Source: an uncultured bacterium (lineage in GTDB: Bacteria; Bacteroidota; Bacteroidia; J057; JADKCL01). Taken from it: a DNA stretch of 64,000 nt. The notes beneath the pieces were generated by a model. It searched no databases and was not told the origin of the DNA. It saw nothing but the letters and a program-made list of their open reading frames with translations. The DNA lies in assembly GCA_963923035.1 (NCBI GenBank), contig CAWUKT010000002.1, forward strand, positions 38,574 through 102,573, given 5' to 3'. A program made the translations under genes and the position numbers. Positions 10,572 to 27,070 of this stretch are shown piece after piece (the stretch's first letter is position 1; every line of letters begins with the position of its first letter).

Positions 10572-10617
10572 GGGAAATTTCATTTCCGCGTGTCATTGTC
10601 CCAAACCCGTTGAGCCT

Positions 10618-11664: not shown

Positions 11665-14249
11665 TGCGGTGGCTGTGGGGATTGGCCCTGCTTTTCTTGG
11701 GGACAGGAGGCTGGTCCCAAAGTGTCCTCAACCAACGGCTGGATTTTTCGGCCGACAAAGAATCTCCCATTGCCTGTTTGATGCGACTCTCGGAAGAATC
11801 CGGCGTCGCAATTGCTTTTTCCAACCGTATCCTGGACGGCGCCAAGGAGGTTTCCCTGGACCGTGAAGCCAGCCTCCTGCGGGACGTCCTCCAGCAGATT
11901 TTGCGGGGGACGCGGTGTGGGTTTCGGGAAATAGGAGGGGAAATCATTGTCTTTCGGGAGCGTCAGCTGGTGAGTGGCTATGTGCTGGACCAAACGTCCA
12001 GCGAAGCGCTGGTCGCCGCCACGGTCTATATTCCCGGCCAACGCATGGGCACCTACACGAACGAGTACGGGTTTTTCAGCCTGGAAATTCCCGCGGAGCT
12101 GGATACGCTTCAGGTCCAGTACATCGGTTATGAGACCCAGCGGATCTTGCTGCCCAAGGACAGCGATGCCTTTGTCCAGCTCCGGCTCAAGCCGGACCTC
12201 AAGCTGGAAGACGTCGTCATTGTGGACCGTCCCGAAAGCCGCTTTCCCTTGCCCCAGGCGCCCGACGGAAAGGCCATTTCGCTGGACCTGATCCAGCAGA
12301 CGCCCACCATTGGGGGAGAGAGCGACCTCATCCGGACCGCCCAACTCCTGCCGGGCATCCAATCGGGCGTGGATGGCACCGCCGGTCTGTTTGTCCGGGG
12401 CGGAGATGCCGGCCACAACATGATGCTCCTGGACGGGGCGACTGTTTACATTCCCTACCACCTGCTCGGCATTTATTCGATCTACAACAGCAATTCGATC
12501 AAATCGGCGCGGGTCCTCAAAGGCGGCTACTCGGCCCGCTACGGCGGACGCCTGGCGGGGATCATGGATGTCCGCACCCGGGAAGGCAACCTCCACCAGT
12601 ACAAGGGAGAGGTTTCCGCGAACCTGATCAACGGGCGCCTGACGGCGGAAGGGCCGATCCAAAAGGACAAAAGCGCTTTTCTGCTCACAGGTCGCATTAC
12701 CAACCAAACCCTGTTGCTCAATCCCTTTTTCGACCGCACCTACCACACCATCCCGAATGGCACCCAGGAAAACCGGTTTCAAGACCTGTTCGGGAAGGTG
12801 AATTTCAAGTTGTCGGACCGGGACCGGATCTACCTGAGTGGGTTGTACACCAAGGATGAGTTTGGGAAGGAGTCCAATATGGTCGGCGGCGGACCCGATT
12901 TTTCTTCTGAAACCGAAGTCTACTGGAACAATGCCGCCGGGACCATTCGCTGGAACCACCTCTTCAACGAGCAGGCCTTCATCAATACCCGCGTCACCTA
13001 CAGCTTCAATTCCTTTCAGTTCTCGAGCTACGACGAATTCGCCGGCACCGGCTCTTCCTATGAATTGTACTTTACCGACAACCGCTCCCGCAACCACGAA
13101 GTGACCGTGGGGAGCGACCTGGACTGGAACATTGCACCGGGACATACCTTACGGGCCGGCGGTGGCATCACCCGCCGGACCTTCGAGACCAGCCTGACCT
13201 ATTTTGACCAGGATTCCCCAGAGATCGATTCCCTGACCGAAACCAACCCCAATACCCTGAGTGAGCTCATTAATCCTCCGACGGAAGTCGTCGGGGAAGC
13301 GTTTGCCTACCTCGAAGACGATATTCGGGTAGGCGAACACCTAACGTTTCGCCCCGGCCTGCGGGGCAGTTATTTTCAACACCCCACCGGCGACCATTTC
13401 CGCCTGGAACCCCGTTTTACCCTCGCCTACCTGCCCTCCAAACGCATGCGCTTCCACCTGAGCGGCAGCCGCATGGTCCAGTACCTCCATTTCATTTCCA
13501 ATACCTCCATCCGTTTCCCCAATGACCTCTGGTTGCCCTCCACCGATGAATTGCCGCCACAGGAGAGTTGGCAGGCGGAATTGGGAGGAGAATGGGCCTT
13601 CGGAAACCACTGGGACGCCCAGTGGGATGTGTACTACCGCCTCTTCGACGGGCTCCTGAGTGTACCCGAGGGCACCAACTTTATCCAGGGCGCCGATCTG
13701 AGCTCCGCGGGCGATTTCCTGTTGTCCGGCTCCGGCCGGGCCTACGGATCGGAATGGTCCCTGAACTATCAGTCCCAGGGCTGGGTCGGGCACCTCGCCT
13801 ATACGCTGGCCCGTACCGAAAGGACTTTTCCCGGCACCAATTTGGGCTTGACCTTTCCCCAGGACTTTGATCGGCAGCACCAATTCAATGTGATGGGGTC
13901 GAAACGGATCGGGAAGCGGTGGGAAACGGGCGTGGTGTGGTCCTATGCCTCAGCCAATCCGCGCCAGGAGTTGGTGAGCGTCGAACGGGGACTCGGATTG
14001 ACGACCATTTTGCCGCCGCCGGGGACCAAAAATAGCGTCAGGTCCGAACCGAACCACCGGCTGGACCTGACCCTTACAATGTTCGTAAATCAAAAAAACT
14101 TTTTACATCGGTTCCAAGTCTCTCTTTACAACGTTTACAACCGCTCCAACATTGCCTATTTTTTGCAAGCGCCCGGAGGAATCGGGGCGATGGAGCGCGT
14201 AGCTTCCCTCGGATTTACCCCCGGATTCTCCTATACCCTTACCCATTGA
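11664..14249 (+). CDS. TonB-dependent receptor with N-terminal STN signalling domain and carboxypeptidase-regulatory-like domain
   Basis: Signal peptide, an STN-like segment (CLMRLSEESGVAIAFSNRIL), a CarbopepD_reg-like segment (VSGYVLDQTSSEALVAATVYIPG), a plug and a beta-barrel ending FTPGFSYTLTH. Forms a FecIRA-type arrangement. Confidence 0.9.
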   Translation: MRWLWGLALLFLGTGGWSQSVLNQRLDFSADKESPIACLMRLSEESGVAIAFSNRILDGAKEVSLDREASLLRDVLQQILRGTRCGFREIGGEIIVFRERQLVSGYVLDQTSSEALVAATVYIPGQRMGTYTNEYGFFSLEIPAELDTLQVQYIGYETQRILLPKDSDAFVQLRLKPDLKLEDVVIVDRPESRFPLPQAPDGKAISLDLIQQTPTIGGESDLIRTAQLLPGIQSGVDGTAGLFVRGGDAGHNMMLLDGATVYIPYHLLGIYSIYNSNSIKSARVLKGGYSARYGGRLAGIMDVRTREGNLHQYKGEVSANLINGRLTAEGPIQKDKSAFLLTGRITNQTLLLNPFFDRTYHTIPNGTQENRFQDLFGKVNFKLSDRDRIYLSGLYTKDEFGKESNMVGGGPDFSSETEVYWNNAAGTIRWNHLFNEQAFINTRVTYSFNSFQFSSYDEFAGTGSSYELYFTDNRSRNHEVTVGSDLDWNIAPGHTLRAGGGITRRTFETSLTYFDQDSPEIDSLTETNPNTLSELINPPTEVVGEAFAYLEDDIRVGEHLTFRPGLRGSYFQHPTGDHFRLEPRFTLAYLPSKRMRFHLSGSRMVQYLHFISNTSIRFPNDLWLPSTDELPPQESWQAELGGEWAFGNHWDAQWDVYYRLFDGLLSVPEGTNFIQGADLSSAGDFLLSGSGRAYGSEWSLNYQSQGWVGHLAYTLARTERTFPGTNLGLTFPQDFDRQHQFNVMGSKRIGKRWETGVVWSYASANPRQELVSVERGLGLTTILPPPGTKNSVRSEPNHRLDLTLTMFVNQKNFLHRFQVSLYNVYNRSNIAYFLQAPGGIGAMERVASLGFTPGFSYTLTH

Positions 14250-14252
14250 CCT

Positions 14253-15512
14253 TTACTTGATCGTAAAGCCCATGCCGAAACTGACAATATTGGCGTGGAA
14301 GTTCGTGCTGCGTCGGTAGTGGGCCGCTTTGGCGTGGATGCCATTGAGGTAAATGGACTTTTCCTTGCGCATCGGCAGCTTCACCTTGAACAGTCCACCG
14401 GCAGGGGTATAATTCACGCCCAATCCAAAGGCATGGCTATTGAGCGCGGCCAGGTCGTAGTCGGAGGTATAAAATTCGCTTCCGGGGGAATGTTGTTGGA
14501 AGGGAAGGAAATAATCGGCCGCGGTCTGGGTGTGGTAGCGGTAGGAAGGCACCACCGACAGGAAGCGGTTCAGTTTCAGGGGCAATTCCAATTGGACCGT
14601 ATGCGCCTGGATTCCCCAATCATCCCAATAGTAGCGATAGGAGGCCCGAACCAAGAGCTTGTCGGACAGGTAATGGTTCACACGGACGCCCACGGGGATT
14701 TTGAGGCGGGTGGAGGGCAAACGTTCCAGCCGCGCGATGTTTTCTCCCCCAAAATAGACCCGGTGGAAGGGCGTCGAGAGCAATCCATTCATCATTGTGG
14801 CTTCCAATTGAACGGAAACCTGGGTTCGGCGGGTCAGGACCTGTTGAATCTGGGCCGCGAAATTATAGGATTGCCGGTCACTGCGGTCCAGCTGCACGCC
14901 GGTATTCCGCAATTCAATCGGGTAAATCAGGGACCATTGGTCGACGAATGACTGGAACCGGAGGTCCAGAGACGTATTCTCGTTTTCGGACAGACGGGTA
15001 TAGGAAAGGCCTGCCTGCACCGATGAATAGTCGTATTCCCCGCTTCCGCCCAGACGGGCGCCAAAGGTTTGCCGGGAGTCGATCTTGTAGACGATCCCGA
15101 CATTCCCGTGGACCCGGGTATCGTAGCCCGAATCATCGGAGTAAACCGGATCGATCATGTCGCTTGAAGCGGACGTATAGTAATCGTAGCCACCATCCAC
15201 CTTGAAAGCCAGGCGCGGCTTCAAGGGCAATGAAACGATGAGCTTCTGGGTGAAATCGGTCAAATGTTCCGTGCCCAAACCGCCGGTCACCGGCGAATTG
15301 TTTCCATCCTGCTCGTAGTAGCTGCTCAGGAAATCGATGTCCACGGCGTCCCAATTCGGGTATTCGAACTCGGCCAGTTCCGTCACCACCGAGTCCGGTG
15401 GGGTCTGCCGGGAAGTCGCCTGGCCTCCCAGGCGATTCAGTTGGGCCTTCAATTCTCCGGTCAGGAAAAGGCAGGCCACGATCAGCATGACTGCAATCAA
15501 TTGCATCCGCAA
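14253..15512 (-). CDS. DUF3570-like outer-membrane beta-barrel protein
   Basis: 419 aa with a signal peptide (MRMQLIAVMLIVACLFLTGELKAQ) and alternating beta-strand pattern throughout. Last gene of the Trx-ApbE-DUF4266 operon; its start overlaps the upstream stop by 16 nt. Confidence 0.7.
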   Translation of the reverse strand: MRMQLIAVMLIVACLFLTGELKAQLNRLGGQATSRQTPPDSVVTELAEFEYPNWDAVDIDFLSSYYEQDGNNSPVTGGLGTEHLTDFTQKLIVSLPLKPRLAFKVDGGYDYYTSASSDMIDPVYSDDSGYDTRVHGNVGIVYKIDSRQTFGARLGGSGEYDYSSVQAGLSYTRLSENENTSLDLRFQSFVDQWSLIYPIELRNTGVQLDRSDRQSYNFAAQIQQVLTRRTQVSVQLEATMMNGLLSTPFHRVYFGGENIARLERLPSTRLKIPVGVRVNHYLSDKLLVRASYRYYWDDWGIQAHTVQLELPLKLNRFLSVVPSYRYHTQTAADYFLPFQQHSPGSEFYTSDYDLAALNSHAFGLGVNYTPAGGLFKVKLPMRKEKSIYLNGIHAKAAHYRRSTNFHANIVSFGMGFTIK

Positions 15513-15718
15513 CCTCCTCCCACCTTGCCGCCATTGGCGCCGGACGCCCCTTCGCGGTAGGTATGAAAATTGGTCTCGAAATAGTCCAACTTGCCGGGGG
15601 CGAGGGCCATGTCGGGATCATTGAGGTACATTTTTTGGTAGCCCTTGACCGGGGTACAGGAGGTCAGGAGGACGAGGCTGGCGGCGGCCAGCGCGACGAT
15701 AGCTTTAAGCCGAAACAT
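15497..15718 (-). CDS. DUF4266-like small lipoprotein ending in GGGCGCN
   Basis: 73 aa from the ATG at 15718: MFRLKAIVALAAASLVLLTSC (lipobox L-T-S-C), with C-terminus ...REGASGANGGKVGGGCGCN. The 119-aa ORF in the track is an upstream extension into apbE and is not used. Confidence 0.7.
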   Translation of the reverse strand: MFRLKAIVALAAASLVLLTSCTPVKGYQKMYLNDPDMALAPGKLDYFETNFHTYREGASGANGGKVGGGCGCN

Positions 15719-16661
15719 GCGCAAATTGATTAAAGTGGTTGGAAAAGTATTGTTGGTTGTGTTGGTCGATGACCAGCGCTTCGATGCCGCGCAAGCGGTT
15801 GATGAGGTCGAGGCCATCCCGGACGCCCAATACGCTGATGGCGGTGGCAAGGGCATCGCCGAGCTCCGGGTCGGGCGACAGCACCGAGACGCATTTCAGG
15901 GCTTCGACCGGCCAGCCGGTCCTGGGGTCCACGATGTGGGACAGGCGACGGCCTTCCACGACCGTATAATTTTCATCGTTCCCTGAGGTGACCACGGAGC
16001 CGTACGGAATCCCGAAGGTCAGCAGGGGCGTCTCCCGATGTTCCGGATCCCGGACCATGACCGCCCAGTCACCTCCCTGGGGAGGGCTTCCCCAGGCCAT
16101 CAAATCGCCGGAGGCATTCACCAGGCCGCTCTCGATGCCGAGGTTCCGCATCACGTCCATGGCCCGCCGGGCCGCATAGCCCTTGCCGATCCCTCCAAAT
16201 CCAATTTTCATTCCCTTTTCCTTCAAAAACACGGTCTTTTTCCCCTCATCCAGCCCAATCTTCCGGTAGCCCATGACCCGCTTCAATTCGGCGATTTCGG
16301 CGGCATTCAGAGAAGGATGTTCTCCTCCATCGAATTTCCAGTGGTCCCGGGCCACGGTTCCGGAGATGTCAAAGGCTCCAAAAGTCAGCTGGGACACTTT
16401 CAGGCTGCGGTGAATCAGGCCGTACAGCTCATTGGGAACTGCCACGGGTGCGATGCCGGCCTGTTGGTTGATGCGGTGGGTAAACGTATCGGTGCGCCAG
16501 GAGGAAATCAGCCGTTCGATGCGGTCGATTTCGGCGACTCCGGCTCGTATGGCGTCCCAGGCATGCTGGGGATCGGCAGACACGGCCGTGAGGGTAAAGC
16601 CACAGCCCATCAACTTGAGCTGGTGGTGGTGAGCTTTCAGGGTAGCAGAAGTGGTGATCAT
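15705..16661 (-). CDS. apbE: FAD:protein FMN transferase (ApbE family)
   Basis: 318 aa with ApbE hallmarks: LMGCGFTL, AFDISG, GFGGIGKGYAA, SVVTSGN, HIVDPRTG, LGDALATA. Its start overlaps the upstream thioredoxin stop (ATGA). Confidence 0.9.
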   Translation of the reverse strand: MITTSATLKAHHHQLKLMGCGFTLTAVSADPQHAWDAIRAGVAEIDRIERLISSWRTDTFTHRINQQAGIAPVAVPNELYGLIHRSLKVSQLTFGAFDISGTVARDHWKFDGGEHPSLNAAEIAELKRVMGYRKIGLDEGKKTVFLKEKGMKIGFGGIGKGYAARRAMDVMRNLGIESGLVNASGDLMAWGSPPQGGDWAVMVRDPEHRETPLLTFGIPYGSVVTSGNDENYTVVEGRRLSHIVDPRTGWPVEALKCVSVLSPDPELGDALATAISVLGVRDGLDLINRLRGIEALVIDQHNQQYFSNHFNQFAHVSA

Positions 16662-17110
16662 GGCGTGGGAGTGGAAGAAATAGAGGCAATGAAATCAGCC
16701 GGGGATTGGCCGGGCGTAAAGGCGATTTCCTGAAGGACTTCCTGGTCGGGAGAAAGCAGCAACACCAGCGGGAACTTTCCCTTGGGGTTGAAGCGCTCCG
16801 CCAGGGATTCGTTGTAGCGGGTCTGCTCTGGCGACAATTGGTTCTTTCGTTGGGCGGGAAAATCCAGGTTGGCGAGGACCAATTCCTGACCGGCGAATTC
16901 CTTGAATTCAGGGGTGGCCACGATTTGGCGCTTGAACAGGATGCAGGGCTTGCACCAATCGGAGCCGGTGAAAAACAAGAGGACCTGCTTGTCGTCTTGT
17001 CGGGCCTCGTCGCAGGCTGCTTCCAGATCGGTCCCAATGGTTTGGGCGGGGAGTTGCGGTCCCCACCAAAGGCCGGCGAGGATCAGGAGAATACATGGAA
17101 TGGGCTTCAT
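16658..17110 (-). CDS. Secreted thioredoxin-fold protein (WCKPC active site)
   Basis: Signal peptide MKPIPCILLILAGLWWGPQLPAQ starting at the ATG at 17110, and a Trx motif LLFFTGSDWCKPC. First gene of the 4-gene operon. Confidence 0.8.
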   Translation of the reverse strand: MKPIPCILLILAGLWWGPQLPAQTIGTDLEAACDEARQDDKQVLLFFTGSDWCKPCILFKRQIVATPEFKEFAGQELVLANLDFPAQRKNQLSPEQTRYNESLAERFNPKGKFPLVLLLSPDQEVLQEIAFTPGQSPADFIASISSTPTP

Positions 17111-17263
17111 GGTCATATCTATTTGATTTGCGACCATGACCCGCAACAATTAAGTTTCCCCTATACCTCCGATAAATTTTATTTATCCTTTCCCGCTTTT
17201 ATCCTGCTCCCGGTCCCATTTTCTCCCCTGAGTTCCGCTTTTTTCCTAACTTTAGAGTTAGCC

Positions 17264-17893
17264 ATGGAGTACAACTGTCCGAATTGTGGGGCGCCCATCA
17301 ATTTCCAAAGTCGGGTCTCAATCTTCACGACCTGTACCTATTGCCGTTCGAATATCGTCCGGCACGACATGGATTTGGAAAAAATTGGAGAGTCCAGCGA
17401 GCTGTTGCAGGACCTATCCCCCTTTCAAGTCGGGACGCGCGGGACGATTGATGGAAAAAGGTTCACCCTGTTGGGCCGAATCAAAGTGGGGTATCCGACG
17501 GGGATGTGGAGCGAGTGGTACGCCCTCATGGACGATTATTCCGAGGGTTGGCTGGCCGAAGCCCAAGGTTATTACATGATGTCTTATCCCTGGAAAGGCC
17601 TTGTTCCGGAGTCCCACCAGCGCTTTGCGCCCCGCCAAAGCACCAACATCGACGGCAAACGCTTTGTCGTGGACGATGTCCGCAAAATCCGCTACCTGGC
17701 CAGCGAAGGCGAATTGCCCTTTGTCTACCAACCCGGATTTGAGGCGACCAGTGTCGACCTGCGGAGCCCCGATGGCGAATTCATGAACTTCCTGTACCGC
17801 GGCAAAGAGGCCGAGGCTTACAAAGGACGCTACGCCTCCTTCGAATCCTTTCAATTTGAGAATCTGAGGAAAATAGATGGCTGGGACGACTGA
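17264..17893 (+). CDS. Zinc-ribbon + DUF4178-like protein
   Basis: 209 aa from the ATG at 17264 (MEYNCPNCG...TCTYCRS gives CxxC..CxxC), then a DUF4178-like core (GTIDGKRFTLLGRIKV...WSEWYALMDD). The long upstream extension in the track (16706) crosses the divergent intergenic region and is rejected. Confidence 0.75.
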   Translation: MEYNCPNCGAPINFQSRVSIFTTCTYCRSNIVRHDMDLEKIGESSELLQDLSPFQVGTRGTIDGKRFTLLGRIKVGYPTGMWSEWYALMDDYSEGWLAEAQGYYMMSYPWKGLVPESHQRFAPRQSTNIDGKRFVVDDVRKIRYLASEGELPFVYQPGFEATSVDLRSPDGEFMNFLYRGKEAEAYKGRYASFESFQFENLRKIDGWDD

Positions 17894-19157
17894 ACATACC
17901 CCGAAGACACCCCTCGGCGGGGTGAAGGCGTTTAGCTGCCGCAATTGCGGCGGTCAGGTCGAGCTGCGCGCGCCCGGCCAAACCATGACGGCCGTCTGCC
18001 AGCATTGCTCTTCGATTGTCGACATCACCGACGAGAACTTCCGCATCCTCCAGCGCTACAACATGAAGATGGACCACAAGCCCCGGATTCCCTTGGGGCG
18101 GCGGGGCGTCGTGGAGGGGACCACCTGGGAGGTGGTCGGCTACCTGTACCGCCAGGCAGTCGGATACGATTTTTACTGGGAGGAATACCTCCTCTTCAAT
18201 CCCCGCCAGGGCTTCCGTTGGCTCCTTTACCAGTACGGCAATTGGTCCTTCACGAAGCCCATGGTCGAGTTTCCGGAACGGACTTCGGCCACCTTCCAGT
18301 TCCGCGGGGATTCTTACCGCCGTTACAGCACCGGCAAGGCGAAAGTCCTGTTCGTGCTGGGCGAATTTTACTGGCAGGTCAAGCGCAACGAAGAGGTCCA
18401 GACGGCCGATTGGGTCCGGGAAGGGAGTATGTTGTCGCTGGAAGTGGACGAATTTGGGCTGAACTGGACGGAAAGCACTTTTCTTGAACGCAAAGAAGTC
18501 AAAAAAGCATTTGGGGAGGATGTCAGAACGCCTCCGCCGCGTAGCGTGGCCCCTCACCAGGTCAATCCCTACGCCCGCCAGCTCAAGTCCATTCTCCCGA
18601 TTTTCCTGATCGCCCTCCTTGCGGTATTTGGCTACCAGGTCACTGTTTCCAGCCAGTACAAAGACGAAGTCACCGTCATGTTCACGGGTGAAACCTCCGA
18701 AAGTGGCGTTCAGCAGGTGACTGAATCCTTTGAAATTACCGGCCGGACGAACAATGTCCAATTGGACCTCTATACTCCCGATATCTCGAACAGCTGGTTC
18801 GAGGTTGAGGGCTACCTGCACCACCTCGAAACCAATACCAACCGGGACTTCCGGTTGACCAATGAATATTACTACGGCGTCACGGACGGCGAATCCTGGA
18901 CCGAAGGTTCCAAACGGACCGACATGGTCATCAACAATGTCCCTCCGGGCAAGTACGAACTGGTTTTCACCCCCTATTTTGCTCCGGAATCCATCAACGA
19001 CGCCACCAAAAAACAGAACTACCAGCTGTACCTGCTCCGCGGGGTGCCGATCGCATCGAATATGTGGATCATCCTGGTCATCATTTTGTCCCCGGTCATT
19101 TACCTCTGGTTCCGAAGTTCCAATTTCAAAAAAGCCCAATGGGCCGACGCCGACTGA
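17877..19157 (+). CDS. Zinc-ribbon + DUF4178-like protein with two TM helices and an extracytoplasmic domain
   Basis: 426 aa: CRNCGG..CQHCSS ribbon, a DUF4178-like core (GVVEGTTWEVVGYLYR..WEEYLLFNP) and TM helices ILPIFLIALLAVFGYQV and MWIILVIILSPVIYLWF. Overlaps the upstream gene by 17 nt. Confidence 0.75.
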   Translation: MAGTTEHTPKTPLGGVKAFSCRNCGGQVELRAPGQTMTAVCQHCSSIVDITDENFRILQRYNMKMDHKPRIPLGRRGVVEGTTWEVVGYLYRQAVGYDFYWEEYLLFNPRQGFRWLLYQYGNWSFTKPMVEFPERTSATFQFRGDSYRRYSTGKAKVLFVLGEFYWQVKRNEEVQTADWVREGSMLSLEVDEFGLNWTESTFLERKEVKKAFGEDVRTPPPRSVAPHQVNPYARQLKSILPIFLIALLAVFGYQVTVSSQYKDEVTVMFTGETSESGVQQVTESFEITGRTNNVQLDLYTPDISNSWFEVEGYLHHLETNTNRDFRLTNEYYYGVTDGESWTEGSKRTDMVINNVPPGKYELVFTPYFAPESINDATKKQNYQLYLLRGVPIASNMWIILVIILSPVIYLWFRSSNFKKAQWADAD

Positions 19158-19158
19158 T

Positions 19159-19308
19159 ATGAAAAGATTGCGCACCATCTACCTGATCATTGTGGTGGCT
19201 CTGTTGGCGGGCTACTTCACCGCGGGTGCCTCCGGATTTCGGGTCCTGAGCGCCTTCAGCAGCATCGCCTACGTCCATACCATGACCGCCGGCGTTCACC
19301 ACAAATAA
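19159..19308 (+). CDS. Small membrane protein (49 aa), hypothetical
   Basis: ATG one nt after the upstream stop. Sequence MKRLRTIYLIIVVALLAGYFTAG... has one TM helix. Supported only by position inside the operon. Confidence 0.4.
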   Translation: MKRLRTIYLIIVVALLAGYFTAGASGFRVLSAFSSIAYVHTMTAGVHHK

Positions 19309-19336
19309 TATCTGCTCCATCTTAAATTGATCTGCC

Positions 19337-19549
19337 ATGGAAATCATCGACTGGAAACTGATCCTCAATGCCGTCCTCTTCTCCGTCGTGGGAATCGTCA
19401 TCTTCCTCGCCTTCGGATGGATTTACGACAAGTTGACGCCCTTCAACCTCTGGAAGGAACTGATCGACAATAAAAACACCGCCGTCGCCATCGTTTTCGG
19501 GTCCATGATGATCGGGCTGTCCATCATCATCGCCTTCGCCCACGGCTGA
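19337..19549 (+). CDS. DUF350 (YjfL-like) small inner-membrane protein
   Basis: 70 aa with two TM helices, including LTPFNLWKELIDNKNTAVAIVFGSMMIGLSIII, which is typical of DUF350. Confidence 0.8.
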   Translation: MEIIDWKLILNAVLFSVVGIVIFLAFGWIYDKLTPFNLWKELIDNKNTAVAIVFGSMMIGLSIIIAFAHG

Positions 19550-19552
19550 TTC

Positions 19553-21049
19553 ATGCGGTACCTGCTGCTCACATCCGTATTTGTCATCGCCACATGCGGA
19601 CTGGTCTATGAACTGGTGGCAGGCACCCTCGCGTCCTATCTCCTCGGAGACTCCGTCACCCAATTTTCCATCATCATCGGGGTCTACCTCTTTTCGATGG
19701 GCATTGGCTCCTTCCTGTCCAAGTACATCACCCAAAACCTCGTCCCGACCTTCATTCGGATCGAACTCCTTATCGGGTTGATCGGTGGGTTCAGCGCCGC
19801 ATTTTTGTTCATCACCTTCGAACAGGTCGGCAGCTTCCAAATCCTGCTCTACGGGCTGGTCTCGTTGACCGGGCTCCTCGTCGGGTTGGAAATCCCACTC
19901 CTGATGCGCATTCTCCAGGACCAATTCGAGTTCAAAGACCTCGTTTCCAATATTTTCACCTTCGATTATATCGGCGCTTTGCTGGCGTCGCTGTTGTTTC
20001 CCCTCCTCCTCGTCCCCTACCTCGGCCTCATCCGCACCGCGCTCCTGTTTGGCATTCTGAATGTCGTCGTGGCGATCGCGGCGGTCTATATGTTTCGGGA
20101 CAAAATCAAACGCTTCTCGGGCCTGTCCATCGCGGCTTACCTGAGCCTCGCGGCCCTGATCGCGGGGATGTTTTTCGGGGAAAACATCCTGCGCTTCGCC
20201 GAGGGCAATGCCTACTCGAATACCATCGTCTACGCCAAATCTTCGCCCTACCAGCGGGTCGTGCTGACCCGCAAAGGCGAGCGGTTCCGCCTCTTCCTGA
20301 ACGGCAACCTGCAATTTGATTCGCGGGACGAATACCGCTACCATGAGGCCCTGGTCCACCCCGGCCTCGCCGCCCAGGAAGCGCCCCGGAGGGTCCTCGT
20401 ACTGGGCGGGGGCGACGGATTGGCCGTGCGCGAAATCCTCAAATATCCTTCCGTACAGACCATTGACCTGGTCGACCTCGATCCTTTGGTCACCGATTTG
20501 TTCCAGACCCGCGCTTCCCTCACCGAATTGAACCGCAATTCCCTCCACAGCGCCCTCGTCACCGTCCACAACGCCGACGCCTTTACCTGGCTCCGCGACC
20601 ACCCCGACCAATACGATTTCGTCGTCGTCGATTTCCCCGATCCCAGCAACTTTTCCATTGGAAAGCTCTATTCCGAACGCTTTTACCGCGAATTGAAGCC
20701 GCATATCGCGCCGGGCGGGGCCCTGGTCGTCCAGAGTACCTCCCCGCTGGTCGCCCCGAATTCCTTCTGGTGTGTGGAGCAAACCTTGAAGTCGGTGGGC
20801 TGGCAAACGGTTCCTTACCACTGCTATGTGCCCTCTTTTGGCGAATGGGGATTCATCCTCGCCAACGACGATACCTGGTTGCTACCCGAAACATATCCCG
20901 ACGGATTGCAATTCGTGGACGACGCGACCGTGCGGGCGATGACCCGTTTCCCCCTGGACATGGCCCGTCGCCCCGTCGAGGTCAACCGCCTCAACAACCA
21001 GGTGCTGGTCCAATATTTTGAAAAAGAGTGGAGCCGCTACGATCCCTGA
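19553..21049 (+). CDS. Membrane-anchored polyamine aminopropyltransferase (spermidine synthase-like)
   Basis: 498 aa: about 7 N-terminal TM helices, then a SpeE-type domain (RVLVLGGGDGLAVREILKY, DLVDLDP, VVDFPDPS). Confidence 0.85.
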   Translation: MRYLLLTSVFVIATCGLVYELVAGTLASYLLGDSVTQFSIIIGVYLFSMGIGSFLSKYITQNLVPTFIRIELLIGLIGGFSAAFLFITFEQVGSFQILLYGLVSLTGLLVGLEIPLLMRILQDQFEFKDLVSNIFTFDYIGALLASLLFPLLLVPYLGLIRTALLFGILNVVVAIAAVYMFRDKIKRFSGLSIAAYLSLAALIAGMFFGENILRFAEGNAYSNTIVYAKSSPYQRVVLTRKGERFRLFLNGNLQFDSRDEYRYHEALVHPGLAAQEAPRRVLVLGGGDGLAVREILKYPSVQTIDLVDLDPLVTDLFQTRASLTELNRNSLHSALVTVHNADAFTWLRDHPDQYDFVVVDFPDPSNFSIGKLYSERFYRELKPHIAPGGALVVQSTSPLVAPNSFWCVEQTLKSVGWQTVPYHCYVPSFGEWGFILANDDTWLLPETYPDGLQFVDDATVRAMTRFPLDMARRPVEVNRLNNQVLVQYFEKEWSRYDP

Positions 21050-22677
21050 TGTCCGATTCCTCCAACATATCGCGCCGCAATTTTCTGCGCTGGTTGGCGG
21101 GAGGGGCTGCTGCCGTAGGATTGGGCAGTGTGGGCGTGTGGAAATGGGCGGGAAAACAAGAACAAGAGATCACCGGAGCGATTCAGGGCGCGAATTCGGA
21201 TTTGGGGCACTTGGTGCGGAAGGGATTGCAGAAAAAAATCACCGAACAACGAAGGGTGGGAACGCTGATTGTAGGCGGAGGAATGGCCGGGTTGAGTGTC
21301 GGCTGGTATTTTCAGAAGCAGGGAAAAAAAGACTTCGAAATCCTGGAAATGGACCGAAAAGTGGGGGGAAATGCCGTTTCCGGAAGCCACAACAATTTTA
21401 GTTACCCCTGGGGCGCCCACTATTTGCCCCTTCCCAATCCCGAAAATACCGACCTCCTCGGTCTGCTCGAAGACCTGGGTTGCTTGACCGGCTGGCAAGA
21501 CGGCCAGCCCCGATTCGAGGAACTCTACCTCTGCCACGCGCCGCAGGAGCGCTTGCTCCACCACGGTGTCTGGCAAGAAGGCCTCGTCCCGAAAGCACCG
21601 GCGGGATCCCCCGCCGCGGCCGAATTGGACCGTTTTTTTACCCTCATCCAGCAACTCCGCCACCAACGCGGAGCGGATGGGCGCTACCTCTTCGACATCC
21701 CGGTGGACCGGTCCTCCACCGATCCTGAGTGGCAATCCCTCGACCAAATCAGCCTTGCCGAATGGCTCGAACGCGAAAATTACCATTCGGAAGAGCTGCA
21801 TTGGTACCTCGATTATTGCTGCCAGGACGACTTTGGCAGCCGCAAGGAACAGACCAGTGCCTGGGCCGGCCTGCATTACTTTGCTGCCCGCCGCGGCACC
21901 GCCGCCAATGCCACCGAAAATTCGGTGCTGACCTGGCCCGAAGGCAACGGCTGGCTGGTCCAGCAGCTTCGGGACCGATTGCAAGAGCATATCCAGACCG
22001 AATCATTGGTCCTTTCCCTGGAGTCACTTGACGAGCAAGTCCGTGCCGTTGTCTACCGCCCGGCGGAAGACAAGGCCTACGAAATCATTGCAGACCAGGC
22101 GGTCTGCTGCACCCCTCAATTTGTCAGCCAGCACATTGTTCGGGGACCGAAACGCCCCGTCGATGCCATCACCTACGCTCCCTGGCTCGTCGCCAATGTC
22201 GAATTGGGCAAGCGCCCGGGAGGCCCCGGTCGGCCGCTCAGTTGGGACAATGTTGCCTTTGGGCGGGACTCGCTCGGCTACGTGGTGGCGGACCACCAGG
22301 GCCTCAAGCGGCCCTCCGGCCCGGTCGTGGTGAGCTGGTACGCGGCCCTGGCCCATGCCGATCCGGTGCAGGTCCGCAAGGAAGCGCTGGAAACGGAATG
22401 GCCTACGTGGCGTGACCGGGTGATCGAAGATTTGGAGTGGATGCACCCGGGCATTTCGAAGGAAATCAAACGGCTGGACGTCTATGTCTGGGGGCATGGC
22501 ATGGTGACGCCCCGACTGGGCTACCTGAGTGGGGCGACGCGGCCTTTGTTCCGGCAGCCCCAGGGGCGCATTCATTATGCGCATACGGACCTGAGCGGCA
22601 TCTCGATCTTCGAAGAGGCCTTTGCTCAGGGCGTGCGGGCCGCGCGGGAAGTCCTCGGAGAGGAGGTGCCGGTATGA
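21049..22677 (+). CDS. Tat-exported FAD-dependent oxidoreductase (amine oxidase-like)
   Basis: Twin-arginine signal SRRNFLRWLAGGAAAVGLG and a dinucleotide fold motif LIVGGGMAGLSVGWYF..EILEMDRKVGGN. The ATG at 21049 overlaps the upstream TGA (TGATG). An alternative start lies at 21028. Confidence 0.8.
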   Translation: MSDSSNISRRNFLRWLAGGAAAVGLGSVGVWKWAGKQEQEITGAIQGANSDLGHLVRKGLQKKITEQRRVGTLIVGGGMAGLSVGWYFQKQGKKDFEILEMDRKVGGNAVSGSHNNFSYPWGAHYLPLPNPENTDLLGLLEDLGCLTGWQDGQPRFEELYLCHAPQERLLHHGVWQEGLVPKAPAGSPAAAELDRFFTLIQQLRHQRGADGRYLFDIPVDRSSTDPEWQSLDQISLAEWLERENYHSEELHWYLDYCCQDDFGSRKEQTSAWAGLHYFAARRGTAANATENSVLTWPEGNGWLVQQLRDRLQEHIQTESLVLSLESLDEQVRAVVYRPAEDKAYEIIADQAVCCTPQFVSQHIVRGPKRPVDAITYAPWLVANVELGKRPGGPGRPLSWDNVAFGRDSLGYVVADHQGLKRPSGPVVVSWYAALAHADPVQVRKEALETEWPTWRDRVIEDLEWMHPGISKEIKRLDVYVWGHGMVTPRLGYLSGATRPLFRQPQGRIHYAHTDLSGISIFEEAFAQGVRAAREVLGEEVPV

Positions 22678-23786
22678 ATACGCCTGGACGCGGCTGGTCT
22701 CAGCCGTGGATTTATGCTCCTCAAGTCGATGGCCCCTTCATTTTGTTGCCAGCTTTTCTGGCGACGGCCGCGGTGGTCCTTTTCCCGGGCTTTTTCCACG
22801 CCGCCAACGAGACCTCTCCCCTCGCCTGGCTCGTCTTCATCGTGTTCATCGACGTGGCGCATGTGTACAGCACCCTGTACCGCACCTATTTTGACCGCCA
22901 GGAATTCCAGAAGTACAAGCGGCCCTTGCTGTTGATTCCGGTGCTGGCATGGATGGTGGGGGCCAGCCTATATTTCATCGATGACATGCTGTTCTGGCGA
23001 ATTTTGGCGTATCTGGCCGTCTACCATTTCGTCCGCCAGCAATACGGCTTTTTCTCCATCTACGCCCGCAAGGAAAACCGCCCTTCCTGGGAACGGCGAC
23101 TGGATGCGGCGATGATTTATTTGTCCACCATTTACCCCCTCGTTTATTGGCATACCCATCTCCCCCGCAATTTCTTCTGGTTCATCAAAGGCGATTTTGT
23201 GTCCATTCCGTGGGAAGTGCTGCACTGGGTGGTTCTGGGGCTGTTTGGGGTGACGGCATTTTCCTACCTCCTCAAAGAAATCCAACGCAGCCGCCGCGAA
23301 CAAAGGATCAATTGGCCGAAAAACCTGATTGTATTGGGGACGGCGCTCTCCTGGAATGCGGGAATCGTCTGGATGAATGGCGATCTGGCGTTTACGGCTA
23401 CGAATGTGGTCGCCCACGGAATTCCGTACATGGCCTTGGTGTGGATTTACGGTCGGAAAAAGGCGGAAAAGGTGCCGGACAAGAAGAAAACGTTGTCCAT
23501 GCGGTTCTTTTCGTCGGGAATGGTGCCGGTTTTTATCGGATTGTTGATGCTGTTGGCCTATTTCGAGGAAGGTCTGTGGGATGCGCTCATCTGGCGGGAC
23601 CACGAAGGCTTGTTTCCCTGGGCCGCTGATTTGCCCTGGCTCACCGATGCCCGGTTTCTGGCTGTCGTCATTCCCTTGTTGGCCGTTCCCCAGGTCACCC
23701 ATTACGTCATTGATGGATTTATTTGGCGGGTGAGAAAAACGAAAAGCGAGGCGGAACAACGGGTTTTTGGAGCGGCATCTGAGTGA
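22674..23786 (+). CDS. Polytopic membrane protein with conserved-looking His motifs, unknown function
   Basis: 370 aa from the ATG at 22674 (ATGA overlap with the upstream stop), with 8 or more hydrophobic helices. His-containing motifs: DVAHVYSTLYRTY, YHFVRQQYG, VAHGIPY, THYVIDGFIWR. Confidence 0.7.
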   Translation: MNTPGRGWSQPWIYAPQVDGPFILLPAFLATAAVVLFPGFFHAANETSPLAWLVFIVFIDVAHVYSTLYRTYFDRQEFQKYKRPLLLIPVLAWMVGASLYFIDDMLFWRILAYLAVYHFVRQQYGFFSIYARKENRPSWERRLDAAMIYLSTIYPLVYWHTHLPRNFFWFIKGDFVSIPWEVLHWVVLGLFGVTAFSYLLKEIQRSRREQRINWPKNLIVLGTALSWNAGIVWMNGDLAFTATNVVAHGIPYMALVWIYGRKKAEKVPDKKKTLSMRFFSSGMVPVFIGLLMLLAYFEEGLWDALIWRDHEGLFPWAADLPWLTDARFLAVVIPLLAVPQVTHYVIDGFIWRVRKTKSEAEQRVFGAASE

Positions 23787-23896: not shown

Positions 23897-26362
23897 ATGC
23901 TCCAGTACCGATTCTCCATCCTCGTCGTACTCATCACCTGCTGCCAATGGGCCCTGGCCCAACGTCCGGGCGGCCGTCCCGGTGGGGCCCCCGCCGCCAG
24001 CAATACGGAAGTCACCGGCATGGTCCTCGATTCGACGTCCGGCGATCCCATTGCCTATGCCACCGTCCAGCTCATGGTACGGGACAGCATCGTCAATGGC
24101 GCCCTGACCAATGAAAAAGGCCGCTTCGCGATCCAAAAGGTGAAGCCTGGTCGCTACCAATTGCAGGTGGTGAGCATGGAATACGAGACGGGGCCGGTGA
24201 AATCGGTGGAAGTGGGGCGGGGAATGCCGTTTGTGAATGCTGGGAAATTGGTCGTGGCGCCGAAAGTGCTGTTGGAGGAGGTGGAAATCACGACTCAGAA
24301 GGACTATATGGTCAATCAAATCGACCGCAAGGTCTATGATGTGACGCAGAACCTGACGACGGTCGGAGGCGGCGCGGGCGATGTGCTGAACACGATTCCG
24401 AGTGTGGAGGTCGATCTGGATGGGAATGTGTCGCTGCGGGGAAATGCCAACGTGACCATTTTTGTGGATGGAAAGCCGAGTGCGCTGACCGGCTCCGGTC
24501 GACAAGCCATATTGGACGCGATCCCCGCGTCCACGATTGCCCGGGTGGAGGTCATCACCAACCCCTCCGCACGCTACGACCCCGATGGGGTCAGCGGCAT
24601 CATCAATATTGTCACCAAGAAAAACAAACGGGCCGGCTGGAACGGCACGGCCACCCTCAGCGTCGGGACCCGCGACAAGTACAGCGGCAACGCCAACCTC
24701 AATTACCGCAACCGCCGCCTGAACGCCTTCGCCAATTATTCCTACAACCTCGACAACCGCTGGTCGGAGGGCATCACCGACCGGACGTCCATCCTCGCAG
24801 ATACGACTTTCCGACTGTTCCAGGAGGAAAATGGGGACCGCCGCCGCCTGAACAATGTGGGCGGCGCGGGCATCGATGTGTTCCTCGGGCCGCGGACCAC
24901 CCTCGGTGTCTCCGGCAACCTGGCCCGTACGGACCAGGACCGCAGCGAGACCATTTCCTTCAATTATTTCGATGAGAATGCGGCGCTCACGGAGCGTTTC
25001 GACCGGATTACCACGGAAACCGAGGTACGGAACAATTACGAGGGCGAACTCAATTTTCAGCACAAATTCGACGACAAGGGGACCCAATTGGATGCGCGGG
25101 CGAGCCATTCGGTGGGCATCGAGGATGAGATCGGGAACTTTGGGTCGTTTGACCTGACGCCGGAGGGGATTCCGATGGGCACCGACCCCGAATTGCAGAA
25201 CAACTTCTCGGACAATGCCTTCCGGGTCTCCATTTTCAAGGTGGACTATACGAAGCCGGTGGGCAAAAAGGGCAAGCTGGAAACCGGCGCGCAGACCACA
25301 CTCCGCCAGATCGACAACGATTTTGCGAGTGAGAGCTTCGATTATGGAGTCGAAGGCTTCACGGACGATGTGGAACTGAACAACCGGTTCATTTACCGGG
25401 AGCAGGTGCACGCGGCGTACATGACCTACGGGCATAGCTTTGGGAAGCTGAACCTTCAGGGGGGGCTCAGGGCCGAGCAGGCGCTGACCGAATCTGAATT
25501 GGTGACGACCAGTGAAATCTTCGAAAACGACTATTTCAACGTCTTCCCGAGCGGGTTTTTGGCCTACAAACCCACCAAGAAGAGTGAAATTCGGATGAGT
25601 TATTCGCGGCGAATCAACCGGCCGCGCACCCGCCAGCTCAATCCATTTACCGATTTTTCCGACCCCGCCAACCTCCGCTTCGGCAATCCCTATCTGTTGC
25701 CCGAATACATCAATTCCTACGAGGCTTCGATCTTCCGGCGCTTCAAGTCAGGGACCATCACCTCCTCGATTTACTACCGCCGGACCGTCGACCTCCACAC
25801 CCGCGTCCTCACGATCAACGATGAGGGCCAGGCCGCTCGGACCTTCGAAAACGCCTCTTCTGCCGACGACATCGGCCTCGAATTCATTACCCAATTCCGC
25901 CCCTTCGAAATCTGGGACTTTACCCTCAGCACCAATTTGTACCGCCGCTCCATCAACGCCTCCAACGTCAATCCTGACCTCACCAGCAACGGCCTCGGAG
26001 GTGGATTCCGCCTGCTGACCTCGCTGCGGTTCACCAAAACCACTAGCTTCCAGGTCGTCGGCAATTACCGCGCCATCGGGGTGCGGCCCCAGGGCTTGAT
26101 CGCGCCCTTCTTCAACATCGACCTCGCCCTCCGCCAACAGGTACTGAAGGGCAAGGGCGACATCGGACTGCGGGTGAGCGATATTTTCGACACGTTGAAA
26201 TTTGAAATTGACCTGGACGACCCGGAATTCTCGGGCCTGCTGCTGCGGGACCGGGAAAGCCGCATTGGGTTCCTGAGTTTTACCTACCGCTTTGGGAAAC
26301 AGACGAATCAGAAGCGTTCCCGCAGCCGGGGAGGTGGTGGCGGCATGGACTTCGATTTTTAG
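23897..26362 (+). CDS. TonB-dependent receptor (carboxypeptidase-regulatory-like N-terminal domain)
   Basis: 821 aa: signal peptide, a CarbopepD_reg-like segment (VTGMVLDSTSGDPIAYATVQL), a plug (IPSVEVDLDGNVSLRGN) and a barrel ending in LSFTYRF plus a basic tail. Confidence 0.85.
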   Translation: MLQYRFSILVVLITCCQWALAQRPGGRPGGAPAASNTEVTGMVLDSTSGDPIAYATVQLMVRDSIVNGALTNEKGRFAIQKVKPGRYQLQVVSMEYETGPVKSVEVGRGMPFVNAGKLVVAPKVLLEEVEITTQKDYMVNQIDRKVYDVTQNLTTVGGGAGDVLNTIPSVEVDLDGNVSLRGNANVTIFVDGKPSALTGSGRQAILDAIPASTIARVEVITNPSARYDPDGVSGIINIVTKKNKRAGWNGTATLSVGTRDKYSGNANLNYRNRRLNAFANYSYNLDNRWSEGITDRTSILADTTFRLFQEENGDRRRLNNVGGAGIDVFLGPRTTLGVSGNLARTDQDRSETISFNYFDENAALTERFDRITTETEVRNNYEGELNFQHKFDDKGTQLDARASHSVGIEDEIGNFGSFDLTPEGIPMGTDPELQNNFSDNAFRVSIFKVDYTKPVGKKGKLETGAQTTLRQIDNDFASESFDYGVEGFTDDVELNNRFIYREQVHAAYMTYGHSFGKLNLQGGLRAEQALTESELVTTSEIFENDYFNVFPSGFLAYKPTKKSEIRMSYSRRINRPRTRQLNPFTDFSDPANLRFGNPYLLPEYINSYEASIFRRFKSGTITSSIYYRRTVDLHTRVLTINDEGQAARTFENASSADDIGLEFITQFRPFEIWDFTLSTNLYRRSINASNVNPDLTSNGLGGGFRLLTSLRFTKTTSFQVVGNYRAIGVRPQGLIAPFFNIDLALRQQVLKGKGDIGLRVSDIFDTLKFEIDLDDPEFSGLLLRDRESRIGFLSFTYRFGKQTNQKRSRSRGGGGGMDFDF

Positions 26363-26425
26363 GCCGGGAAAATGGCACCGAAAGGGTCCGTGGGATTGGG
26401 TCAATTCCGCTAACTTAGGGGAGCG

Positions 26426-27070
26426 ATGACGCGGCGAGAACTGGAACATACGGTTGCCTTCGGGGAAGGCCAGCACATTGAATTCAAGCGCAAGTTGCCG
26501 ACCTGGCCAAAATTGGTGCGGGAAGTGGTAGCCTTTGCGAATTCAGATGGCGGGACCGTGTTTGTGGGGGTGAGCGATGACGGGGAAACAGTGGGGGTGA
26601 AAGATCCGCGGGAAATTGAGGAGGCGATGGAATTGGAATTGGGGATGTACGTGACGCCGAAGCTGGATCTGGAAATCGAGGTGGTGCCCCTTACGCGGAA
26701 ACGGGCGGTGGTCTGTGTGCATGTGGAGCCGGGGGAGAAAAAGCCGTATATGGCGCTGGAATCGCCGGACGCCCACCGGGGCACGGCGTTGATCCGGATT
26801 GCCGATGCGAGCGTCACTGCGAGCAAAGAGGTCTATGAGCTGTTGAAGTACGAGGGGCGGGAGCGGAACATGCGGGTGGAATACGGAGACAAGGAAATCA
26901 CCCTGATGCGCTACCTCGAACAAGAGACCTGCATTACCCTGAAAAAATTTACCGAAATCGCCCAACTGACCCGCCAAGCCGCGTCCCGGACCCTGGTCCA
27001 CCTCGTCAAAGCGAATGTCCTCCGCATCGAACCCGGCATCGAAGTGGACCGCTACTACCAAGCCCTTTGA
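26426..27070 (+). CDS. AlbA_2 (Schlafen-like) domain protein with C-terminal wHTH, putative DNA-binding regulator
   Basis: 214 aa. GEGQHIEFKRKLP...VVAFANSDGGTVFVGVSDDG is the characteristic AlbA_2 motif. The C-terminal segment looks like a winged helix (TRQAASRTLVHLVKANVL). Confidence 0.7.
   Translation: MTRRELEHTVAFGEGQHIEFKRKLPTWPKLVREVVAFANSDGGTVFVGVSDDGETVGVKDPREIEEAMELELGMYVTPKLDLEIEVVPLTRKRAVVCVHVEPGEKKPYMALESPDAHRGTALIRIADASVTASKEVYELLKYEGRERNMRVEYGDKEITLMRYLEQETCITLKKFTEIAQLTRQAASRTLVHLVKANVLRIEPGIEVDRYYQAL

Follow-up and report, generated by a model that had tools for sequence, protein, structure and literature searches.

An ancient seven-gene envelope operon encodes a membrane-bound aminopropyltransferase-type enzyme beside a small exported-type protein ending in His-Lys

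A stretch of 64,000 nucleotides (nt) from an uncultured Bacteroidota bacterium (contig CAWUKT010000002.1, positions 38,574 to 102,573), referred to throughout as the window, carries seven genes of the plus strand, g1 to g7, between positions 17264 and 23786. The first of these, g1 (17264–17893), encodes a soluble protein of 209 residues in which a zinc (Zn) ribbon is followed by DUF4178; g2 (17877–19157) overlaps it by 17 nt, and its 426-residue product joins a Zn-ribbon and DUF4178 to two transmembrane (TM) helices. A gap of 1 nt separates g2 from g3 (19159–19308), the gene for a small exported-type protein of 49 residues, and 28 nt separate g3 from g4 (19337–19549), which encodes a two-helix membrane protein of the DUF350 (YjfL) family with 70 residues. 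The 498-residue product of g5 (19553–21049, 3 nt beyond g4) consists of seven TM helices and an aminopropyltransferase-type domain. The ATG of g6 (21049–22677) lies within a TGATG sequence, a 1-nt overlap with g5, and the gene encodes a flavoprotein of 542 residues with a twin-arginine translocation (Tat) signal; g7 (22674–23786) starts in an ATGA overlap with g6 and encodes a 370-residue membrane protein of 10 helices. Every one of these coordinates and junctions, which had been given in an earlier note made from the sequence alone, was reproduced by listing the open reading frames (ORFs) and inspecting the junctions, and the domain calls made there for g1, g2, g4, g5 and g6 were upheld by profile searches.

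Conservation of the gene set was surveyed with g7 as the anchor. One genome per species was scanned, at least 583 species contained a g7 homologue, and the proteins of the window were mapped by tblastn onto the 80 best g7 loci of these species. The counts given here cover the 70 loci with at least 6.6 kb upstream of g7 and are conditional on the g7 anchor. Genes g2, g5 and g6 were each found upstream of g7 in 65 of the 70 loci, g4 in 57 (a lower bound, since the query is short) and g1 in 46, with gene order and strand identical wherever the genes were mapped. The loci are spread over Bacteroidota, Melainabacteria/Obscuribacterales, Alpha- and Betaproteobacteria, Bdellovibrionota, Leptospiraceae and unclassified lineages, and the recurrence of one gene order in several phyla puts the arrangement far outside what chance would give. 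The seven genes are one tightly coupled, conserved and ancient envelope unit, as the earlier note had supposed from their packing, and the co-occurrence of DUF4178, DUF350, membrane SpeE-like and Tat-flavin adenine dinucleotide (FAD) genes that it had raised is found conserved across phyla. In Melainabacteria and Proteobacteria an SPFH/Band-7 gene precedes g1 (11 of 11 and 11 of 12 loci, respectively); this was so in none of the 40 Bacteroidota loci, and no SPFH/Band-7 gene was detectable in the 64-kb window. A second search, anchored on g5 and directed at plasmids and chromids, returned versions that have no g7, in Novosphingobium, Ralstonia solanacearum (a split cluster), Burkholderia cenocepacia and Gemmatirosa. 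The locus is the Bacteroidota form of a widespread envelope module, of an operon type already known but unexplained.

The most telling component of the operon is g3. Its product begins with a basic N-terminal part and continues in a single hydrophobic helix or signal peptide, and its variable tail closes with a C-terminal His-Lys. Each of the 70 loci that have the g2–g5 interval contains there an ORF with His-Lys directly before its stop codon (70 of 70), where the background frequency of ORFs ending in His-Lys is 0.5%. Family alignments show a Gly/Ser/His-rich variable tail ending in [FG][YH]HK; an AxA-like site often follows the hydrophobic helix, so that this helix is possibly a signal that is cleaved off. 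Neither Pfam nor NCBIfam has a family that matched g3, and a search with a profile of the family recovered 21 proteins, all unnamed, a number that gives no estimate of the size of the family. The invariant His-Lys family is new here; the 49-residue TM peptide had been given no weight before, a view that cannot be kept with an end so constant. A fortuitous juxtaposition of unrelated genes, or a g3 that is merely a spurious small ORF, would account for the lack of a database family, but order and strand are held across phyla, start and stop codons overlap, and the His-Lys ending is universal in these loci against its 0.5% background. With the conserved order and the conserved ending, such a reading is refuted, and its probability is negligible.

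The Lys terminus extends beyond the clusters that contain g7. The endings ..GPSHK, ..SGGHK and ..YGSHK were seen in the clusters lacking g7 from Novosphingobium, Ralstonia and Burkholderia, respectively, and the Lys-ended protein of Gemmatirosa has the C-terminus ..RHGK. Tritonibacter, which has no g6, encodes directly upstream of DUF350 a protein ending in ..NRVK, with Lys and no His, and four divergent loci of TelA/Alteromonas type, likewise without g6, encode lipoproteins of ∼510 residues that end in ..SSGK, ..GKGK, ..GKGK and ..GRGK. Taken over all 79 non-redundant loci with a 7TM-SpeE fusion, a C-terminal Lys was found in every case (79 of 79) on an exported, flexible-tailed protein beside DUF350, and the g4-type DUF350 gene always lies directly downstream of the gene for the Lys-ended protein. 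His at position −2 (−3 in Gemmatirosa) was found only where g6 is present. A short gene product whose terminal core is conserved and which is inherited along with tailoring enzymes follows a logic like that of ribosomally synthesized and post-translationally modified peptides, and g3 may be the acceptor substrate of g5.

For g5, the membrane-type model PRK03612 (NCBIfam NF002956, an equivalog named 'polyamine aminopropyltransferase') was matched with 683 bits against a cutoff of 472, and PF01564 (Spermine_synth) with 126 bits against 22.9; the score for NF037959, the MFS_SpdSyn model, fell below its cutoff. Seven hydrophobic helices precede the sequence GGGDG at residues 285–289 and DFPDP at 360, and residues 205–452 align with spermidine and thermospermine synthases of the PDB. 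The catalytic signature (Y263-H-E, GGGDG, D308/D310, D342, D360/D363 and Q394) is intact in 71 of 72 homologues, Asp288 of GGGDG being kept in the same number. According to Batth et al., in their work on the fungal methyltransferase NHMT, the acidic residue of the GxG(D/E)G motif separates aminopropyltransferases that use decarboxylated S-adenosylmethionine (dcSAM) from methyltransferases. By these motifs g5 is predicted to be a dcSAM-type enzyme, a reading drawn from the conserved acidic residue of GGGDG, from D360/D363 and from an adjacent S-adenosylmethionine (AdoMet, SAM) decarboxylase gene in most related loci.

An AdoMet decarboxylase is encoded within the cluster in 56 of the 70 loci, after g7 in proteobacteria and, in 37 of the 40 loci from Bacteroidota, directly upstream of g1 or g2. 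Most of these are small SpeD-type enzymes with an ESH...HTWPE processing motif, and a eukaryote-like decarboxylase of the PF01536 type occurs in two loci. The megaplasmid of Ralstonia solanacearum likewise carries speD together with a g5 orthologue of 53% identity. In the 64-kb window no SAM decarboxylase was detectable by tblastn with class-1 and class-2 queries, which bears out what had been noticed at first sight, and in most Bacteroidota relatives speD sits where the window has the intergenic stretch 17150–17263. A link of this kind has been described before: Li, Kurihara, Kim, Liang and Michael (2019, Biochem J 476:2579), as cited in later work such as that of Ravi et al. (2024), connected SpdSyn-like membrane fusions with AdoMet decarboxylase and DUF350. 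The g5 locus resembles those cases in its fusion of a membrane domain to an aminopropyltransferase-like domain and in its genomic links, and the accessible passages of papers citing that study name no acceptor for the fusions.

The orientation of g5 was examined by counting Lys plus Arg residues per sequence in the loops between helices across the alignment of the 72 homologues. From loop 1-2 to loop 6-7 the values are 0.01, 2.06, 0.01, 3.33, 0.00 and 2.07, and on reading the sequence of a divergent Alteromonas fusion the same pattern of loop charges was seen. The SpeE fold begins at residue 205, directly after TM7, so that an eighth helix would not fit between them. Read by the positive-inside rule, these charges place the N-terminus in the cytoplasm and would place the catalytic domain in the periplasm. 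This outward orientation, which we infer from the loops and which is new here, runs counter to the proposal in the earlier note that polyamines are synthesized on the inner face of the membrane. The 7-TM domain (19553–20180) has a mean column identity of 64% over 13 diverse sequences, with an invariant Cys15 and the intrahelical acidic residues E20, E71, E113 and D138. Conservation this high, together with invariant acidic residues within the membrane, suggests that the domain may conduct a cation such as dcSAM rather than act as a passive anchor. No relative of the domain was found in the PDB, and kinship between it and g7 was rejected (hhalign probability 1.5%).

The flavoprotein g6 scores 27.2 bits against a cutoff of 22.7 for the Pfam family TAT_signal, on an N-terminal Tat motif of the S/T-R-R-x-F-L-K type that a hydrophobic stretch follows (SRRNFLRWLAGGAAAVGLGSVGV). 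Its homologues have Tat or Tat-like N-termini, often with a lipobox, in which the motif is conserved, and g6 is predicted to be a Tat-exported periplasmic flavoprotein. A match to Amino_oxidase (PF01593; 62.9 bits, cutoff 19.8) is accompanied by one to NAD_binding_8, and G76, G78 and G81 of the dinucleotide-binding motif are invariant. As a single sequence g6 found no match in the PDB. When the family profile was compared with solved amine, amino-acid and polyamine oxidases, likeness was confined to the N-terminal FAD-binding segment; the alignment with Pseudomonas aeruginosa SpdH (PDB 7d9f-j) runs from SpdH residue 2 through the Tat-signal region into the FAD segment, with E ∼2e-9. SpdH is a periplasmic flavoprotein that acts on a polyamine, but its likeness to g6 is limited to ∼100 N-terminal residues, and the substrate domain of g6 has invariant residues of its own.

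Based on these observations, the reading that we favor, tentatively and as something short of probable, is that, outside the cytoplasm, g5 transfers an aminopropyl group from dcSAM to the Lys-ended tail of g3 and that the Tat-exported g6 acts on the product. The chemistry of the module would then be aminopropyl transfer outside the cytoplasm and not bulk polyamine synthesis. In this organism dcSAM would come from an AdoMet decarboxylase whose gene lies at another place in the genome; the 7-TM domain of g5 would keep the catalytic domain at the periplasmic face of the membrane and probably supply its cationic donor, with either this domain or g7 delivering dcSAM to the outward-facing transferase domain. 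The acceptor would be the C-terminal Lys of g3, with its epsilon-amine the likeliest site and the adjacent His a less likely one, and the product would be a polyamine-like group, membrane-tethered or periplasmic. In the periplasm g6 might oxidize the modified tail of g3, as a step of maturation, of cross-linking or of removal of the group.

Several points weigh against this proposal. The catalytic domain of g5 has no conserved pair of cysteines for a disulphide and one conserved free Cys, so that a periplasmic site finds no independent support there. We know of no bacterial precedent for export of the donor to a periplasmic SAM-type enzyme. In spermidine synthases the second Asp of DxxDP is generally taken to bind the distal ammonium of the diamine, and on that view a free diamine would be a better match than a peptidyl Lys. 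Conservation and position are the only grounds for the proposed acceptor, and the correlation of His with g6 comes from just five loci without g6, uncorrected for phylogeny. The window is one of few Bacteroidota versions without a clustered AdoMet decarboxylase. The experiments of 2019 on SpdSyn-like fusions, reportedly with an N-terminal domain of the major facilitator superfamily (MFS) type, may concern fusions of that type, whereas g5 is of the 7-TM PRK03612 type and falls below the MFS_SpdSyn cutoff. Finally, the versions from Novosphingobium, Ralstonia, Burkholderia and Gemmatirosa have no g7, and elsewhere the gene occurs alone, which makes its part in the scheme weak.

The same enzymes could also serve free-polyamine metabolism at the envelope, with g5 a membrane-bound synthase of spermidine, norspermidine or another polyamine, g6 a periplasmic polyamine oxidase or dehydrogenase by which polyamines are degraded or interconverted, and the remaining genes coding for accessory membrane proteins. 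That g5 passes the NCBIfam equivalog 'polyamine aminopropyltransferase' and keeps all of the diamine- and dcSAM-binding residues would be expected in this case, as would the membership of g6 in the amine-oxidase superfamily, with SpdH its nearest Tat-bearing solved relative, and the co-clustered AdoMet decarboxylase of the relatives. In its fold, its full set of signature residues and the SpeD-type decarboxylases clustered with its relatives, g5 indeed resembles the soluble SpeE/SpeD pathway, from which it differs by its 7-TM fusion, its predicted periplasmic orientation and its setting in a dedicated envelope operon. However, a 2025 paper citing Li et al. (2019) reports that related bacterial fusions are uninvolved in the synthesis of spermidine or spermine and, unlike canonical SpeE/SpeD, do not feed spermidine pools, a report that tells against the synthesis of polyamines by g5 as first put forward. 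A periplasmic catalytic domain, if the prediction holds, would be odd for bulk synthesis, the likeness of g6 to known polyamine oxidases is limited to the FAD-binding segment, and the invariant Lys-ended exported protein would be left unexplained along with the DUF4178 and SPFH partners. We consider free-polyamine metabolism rather unlikely.

Over 4000 homologues exist of g7, the last protein of the operon; identity across phyla is ∼50%, and the invariant positions comprise 5 His and many Asp, Glu, Arg and Asn residues. It had been described as a His-rich polytopic membrane protein; it is polytopic, with ∼10 helices and its five invariant His, but at 9 His in 370 residues (2.4%) it is not His-rich by composition. 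An AlphaFold2 model (mean predicted local distance difference test score, pLDDT, 90.5) is all-helical with ∼10 helices, and when the helix map of the model was read against the alignment, the invariant polar residues appeared to lie largely in the periplasmic half of the helices. No match was found in NCBIfam, in the PDB by sequence profile or in Pfam even at E ≤ 10, and a Foldseek search of the PDB gave nothing significant (best E 0.2, TM-scores 0.1–0.2). Labels of 'lycopene cyclase domain' and 'Tic20' attached to some homologues were not supported by a Pfam scan of the same proteins and were deemed unreliable. The protein represents a 10-TM family, new here, without a detectable known relative. 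Under the favored aminopropylation of g3, g7 might supply dcSAM, serve as a redox partner or be a processing enzyme; it is translationally coupled to g6 and could be a membrane enzyme or carrier for the same periplasmic step, or else the dcSAM supplier. Both this role and the reaction of g6 are ones that we infer. A metagenome-assembled genome of the Hydrogenophilales (L067:10001–11426) has a g7 homologue followed directly by speD, with none of g1 to g6 in the 10 kb upstream, a locus that hints at a tie of g7 to dcSAM itself and not to the flavoprotein.

These features of g7 and of the 7-TM domain bring in lipids as a possible target. Here the acceptor for g5 would be an amine lipid in the outer leaflet of the inner membrane, for example phosphatidylethanolamine or a lipid built on ornithine or lysine, and its aminopropylation would alter surface charge; g7 would act as a flippase or as an enzyme that handles lipids, and g3 would be a small regulatory or structural subunit. 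A 7-TM domain conserved beyond the needs of a simple anchor, with acidic residues within the membrane, a catalytic domain that abuts the membrane, and g7 polar residues gathered largely in the periplasmic helix halves would all be in keeping with such chemistry, which also fits the link to the membrane-maintenance genes SPFH and PspA. Yet no gene carries a signature of a lipid-enzyme family in Pfam or NCBIfam, g7 is dispensable in several lineages, and the universal C-terminal Lys of the adjoining exported protein has no place in the scheme. Modification of lipid head groups is, in our judgement, unlikely.

The remaining proteins are those with DUF4178 and DUF350. The match of g1 to Pfam DUF4178 (E 1.2e-11) lies behind a CxxC pair, CPNC and CTYC; the start of g1 is backed by the alignment of homologues, and the protein is soluble and probably cytoplasmic. 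In g2, DUF4178 (E 7e-17) again follows a CxxC...CxxC pair, and the AlphaFold2 model (pLDDT 85) has TM helices at 231–260 and 393–421 around a beta-domain at 264–388. The predicted layout is a cytoplasmic Zn-ribbon and beta-rich DUF4178, a TM helix, a periplasmic beta-sandwich and a second TM helix, and Foldseek matched the beta-sandwich to generic beta-sandwich or jelly-roll binding domains only. The structure prediction that the earlier note had in mind for the DUF4178 proteins, done here for g2, confirmed its two TM helices. Natural fusions of g1 and g2 with 633–650 residues (P0176, P0200, P0234 and others; 40% identity, E 4e-51) exist in some lineages and indicate that the two proteins act together. 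Gene g4 matches Pfam DUF350 with E 2.4e-17 and is 37% identical to Escherichia coli YjfL. The link between DUF350, polyamine-type enzymes and scaffolds of membrane stress, suggested from known gene neighborhoods, is a real one; SPFH/Band-7 genes head the cluster outside Bacteroidota. In the scheme favored here, the DUF4178 proteins g1 and g2 and the DUF350 protein g4 would form a membrane scaffold or sensor, joined in other phyla to membrane maintenance by SPFH/Band-7 or PspA.

A scaffold of this kind could instead be the heart of the system. DUF4178 and DUF350, with SPFH or PspA, would then sense damage to the envelope, the enzymes would make or destroy a diffusible amine signal, and g3 would be a signal or regulator whose His-Lys end binds metal or docks into the periplasmic beta-sandwich of g2. 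The joining of a periplasmic beta-sandwich to cytoplasmic DUF4178 in g2, the g1-g2 fusions and the recurrent SPFH or PspA partners are what a sensor might look like, and His with a terminal carboxylate and amine would make a plausible motif for binding metal or docking onto a protein. The unit, however, has no regulator or kinase, and a sensor would leave unexplained why a dcSAM-forming enzyme and an intact aminopropyltransferase are strictly co-inherited with a Lys-ended protein. Its probability is low, a little below that given to lipids. A defense system was also considered and rejected; the PADLOC match is to a generic methyltransferase fold only.

Operons of related content have been reported. 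Ravi et al. (2024, mSystems) described a PspA-associated operon of six to seven genes in the neighborhood of Shewanella oneidensis SO_3765 that contains a fusion of a 7TM domain with spermine/spermidine synthase, YjfL/DUF350, a Ctha_1186 lipoprotein, DUF4178 and a CesT/Tir-PspA dyad. Its core of 7TM-SpeE fusion, DUF350 and DUF4178 encoded together is also that of the window, and its exported 'Ctha_1186 + low-complexity' protein upstream of DUF350 has a possible counterpart in g3, which stands at that position and looks exported, with a flexible tail. The window differs in lacking PspA, CesT/Tir (YjfI-like) and SPFH genes, and no match to E. coli YjfI or YjfJ was found in it by tblastn; it has in addition two DUF4178 genes, one of them membrane-spanning, a Tat flavoprotein and g7, and its tail protein is a 49-residue His-Lys peptide instead of a lipoprotein. 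The accessible text of Ravi et al. does not mention the Lys terminus. The statement in the earlier note that the combination has no assigned function stands as to function, but the association of 7TM-SpeE, DUF350 and DUF4178 is already published (Ravi et al., 2024; Li et al., 2019, the latter as cited in later work), with no function assigned there.

A sister operon containing DUF350 is yjfIJKLMC of E. coli, in which YjfC, like YgiC, is a peptide-spermidine ligase (Pederick et al., 2023). In a setting comparable to that of g4, DUF350 stands there beside YjfM, a membrane-tethered protein with a Gly/Ser/Arg-rich tail, and beside an enzyme that conjugates a polyamine to peptides, so that for this operon the attachment of a polyamine-type group to a peptide is backed by biochemistry. 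The differences are that the enzyme of yjfIJKLMC and ygiBC is a ligase and not an aminopropyltransferase, YjfC being a cytoplasmic ATP-grasp ligase that uses preformed spermidine (Pederick et al., 2023), and that YjfM ends in ..HWGG where g3 ends in His-Lys. Among yjfIJKLMC queries YjfL (DUF350) alone matched the window, with no match for YjfC, YjfM, YjfI, PspA (YjfJ) or YjfK. The yjfM gene of E. coli K-12 (L092:8388–9026) encodes a protein with a single TM helix behind a basic N-terminus and with a tail, rich in Gly, Ser and Arg, that ends in ..ARGHWGG, and YjfM may be the physiological substrate of YjfC; this would set a periplasmic tail against a cytoplasmic ligase.

A parallel in described architecture is eukaryotic. 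Fungal NHMT (AN4663; Batth et al.) consists of ∼215 residues of seven TM helices followed by a spermidine-synthase-like Rossmann domain, a layout shared with g5; its target is the His at the N-terminus of secreted proteins, which it modifies in the endoplasmic reticulum, topologically a compartment outside the cytoplasm, and its activity requires the TM domain. NHMT has Ile in the GxG(D/E)G motif and transfers a methyl group from SAM, whereas g5 has Asp288 and is of the dcSAM, aminopropyl type. In layout g5 resembles NHMT; with its Asp it stands outside that class of methyltransferases and in the class of aminopropyl transfer.

In its widest form, the proposal is that 7TM-SpeE fusions modify proteins or peptides outside the cytoplasm: as aminopropyltransferases they would assemble a polyamine-like group on the Lys at the C-terminus of an exported protein dedicated to this purpose, with processing by g6 where His precedes the Lys. 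That protein would be the 49-residue g3 here and a lipoprotein ending in ..GK in other operon types. Extended in this way it is possible, and we hold it with more doubt than the reading of the present locus. In many bacteria an AdoMet decarboxylase is retained along with a membrane-bound enzyme of spermidine-synthase-like type, and as late as 2025 these fusions were called uninvolved in spermidine or spermine synthesis. For these enzymes the locus and its relatives offer a concrete candidate substrate, the co-encoded exported protein ending in Lys, and suggest the periplasmic face as the site of the reaction. If the proposal is true, it would amount to a new post-translational chemistry in the bacterial envelope and would, to our knowledge, be the first system in which an enzyme aminopropylates a protein. 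The 'polyamine-independent role' that AdoMet decarboxylase has in thousands of bacteria would then be explained as well; DUF350, DUF4178 and an unstudied 10-TM family found in at least 583 species would gain a functional context, and polyamine-type chemistry would be linked mechanistically to membrane maintenance by SPFH and PspA.

The presumed promoter region of the operon (17150–17263) is an AT-rich stretch of 114 nt between g1 and a divergent thioredoxin-like gene. It matched no Rfam family, and no riboswitch or other RNA family was found in it; a scan for sigma-70 promoters and terminators, a method unsuited to Bacteroidota, did no better than with shuffled sequences. Directly upstream, a set of four genes on the minus strand (14253–17149) encodes a Thioredoxin_7 protein (16658–17149), an ApbE flavin transferase (15705–16661), a DUF4266 lipoprotein (15497–15856) and a DUF3570 beta-barrel (14253–15512). 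ApbE and a BBP2 barrel also lie upstream of the cluster in one distant relative (L002) and not in the other loci; the set does not recur and was therefore set aside as part of the system. The flanks of the operon (9978–14249 and 23897–27070) encode typical Bacteroidota surface functions, with a FecR-like anti-sigma factor (10618–11664) and a CarboxypepD_reg/Plug receptor (11658–14249) on one side, and a TonB-dependent-receptor-like outer membrane protein (23897–26362) and a Schlafen/AlbA_2 protein (26426–27070) on the other. A similar receptor gene adjoins the cluster of Pontibacter ruber (L001).

Two further layouts were seen among the relatives. In Solitalea agri (L066:3333–11014) the module of g2, a small ORF and g4 occurs twice in tandem and is followed by g5, g6 and g7. 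The split cluster of Ralstonia (L086, CP144383.1, 1687538–1707034) has DUF350, SPFH, DUF4178, a 61-residue peptide ending in ..GGHK and speD on one strand; a livKHMGF amino-acid ATP-binding cassette transporter comes next, followed by the speE-fusion and an FAD oxidoreductase. R. solanacearum is a well-studied plant pathogen, and its split cluster offers a tractable genetic system.

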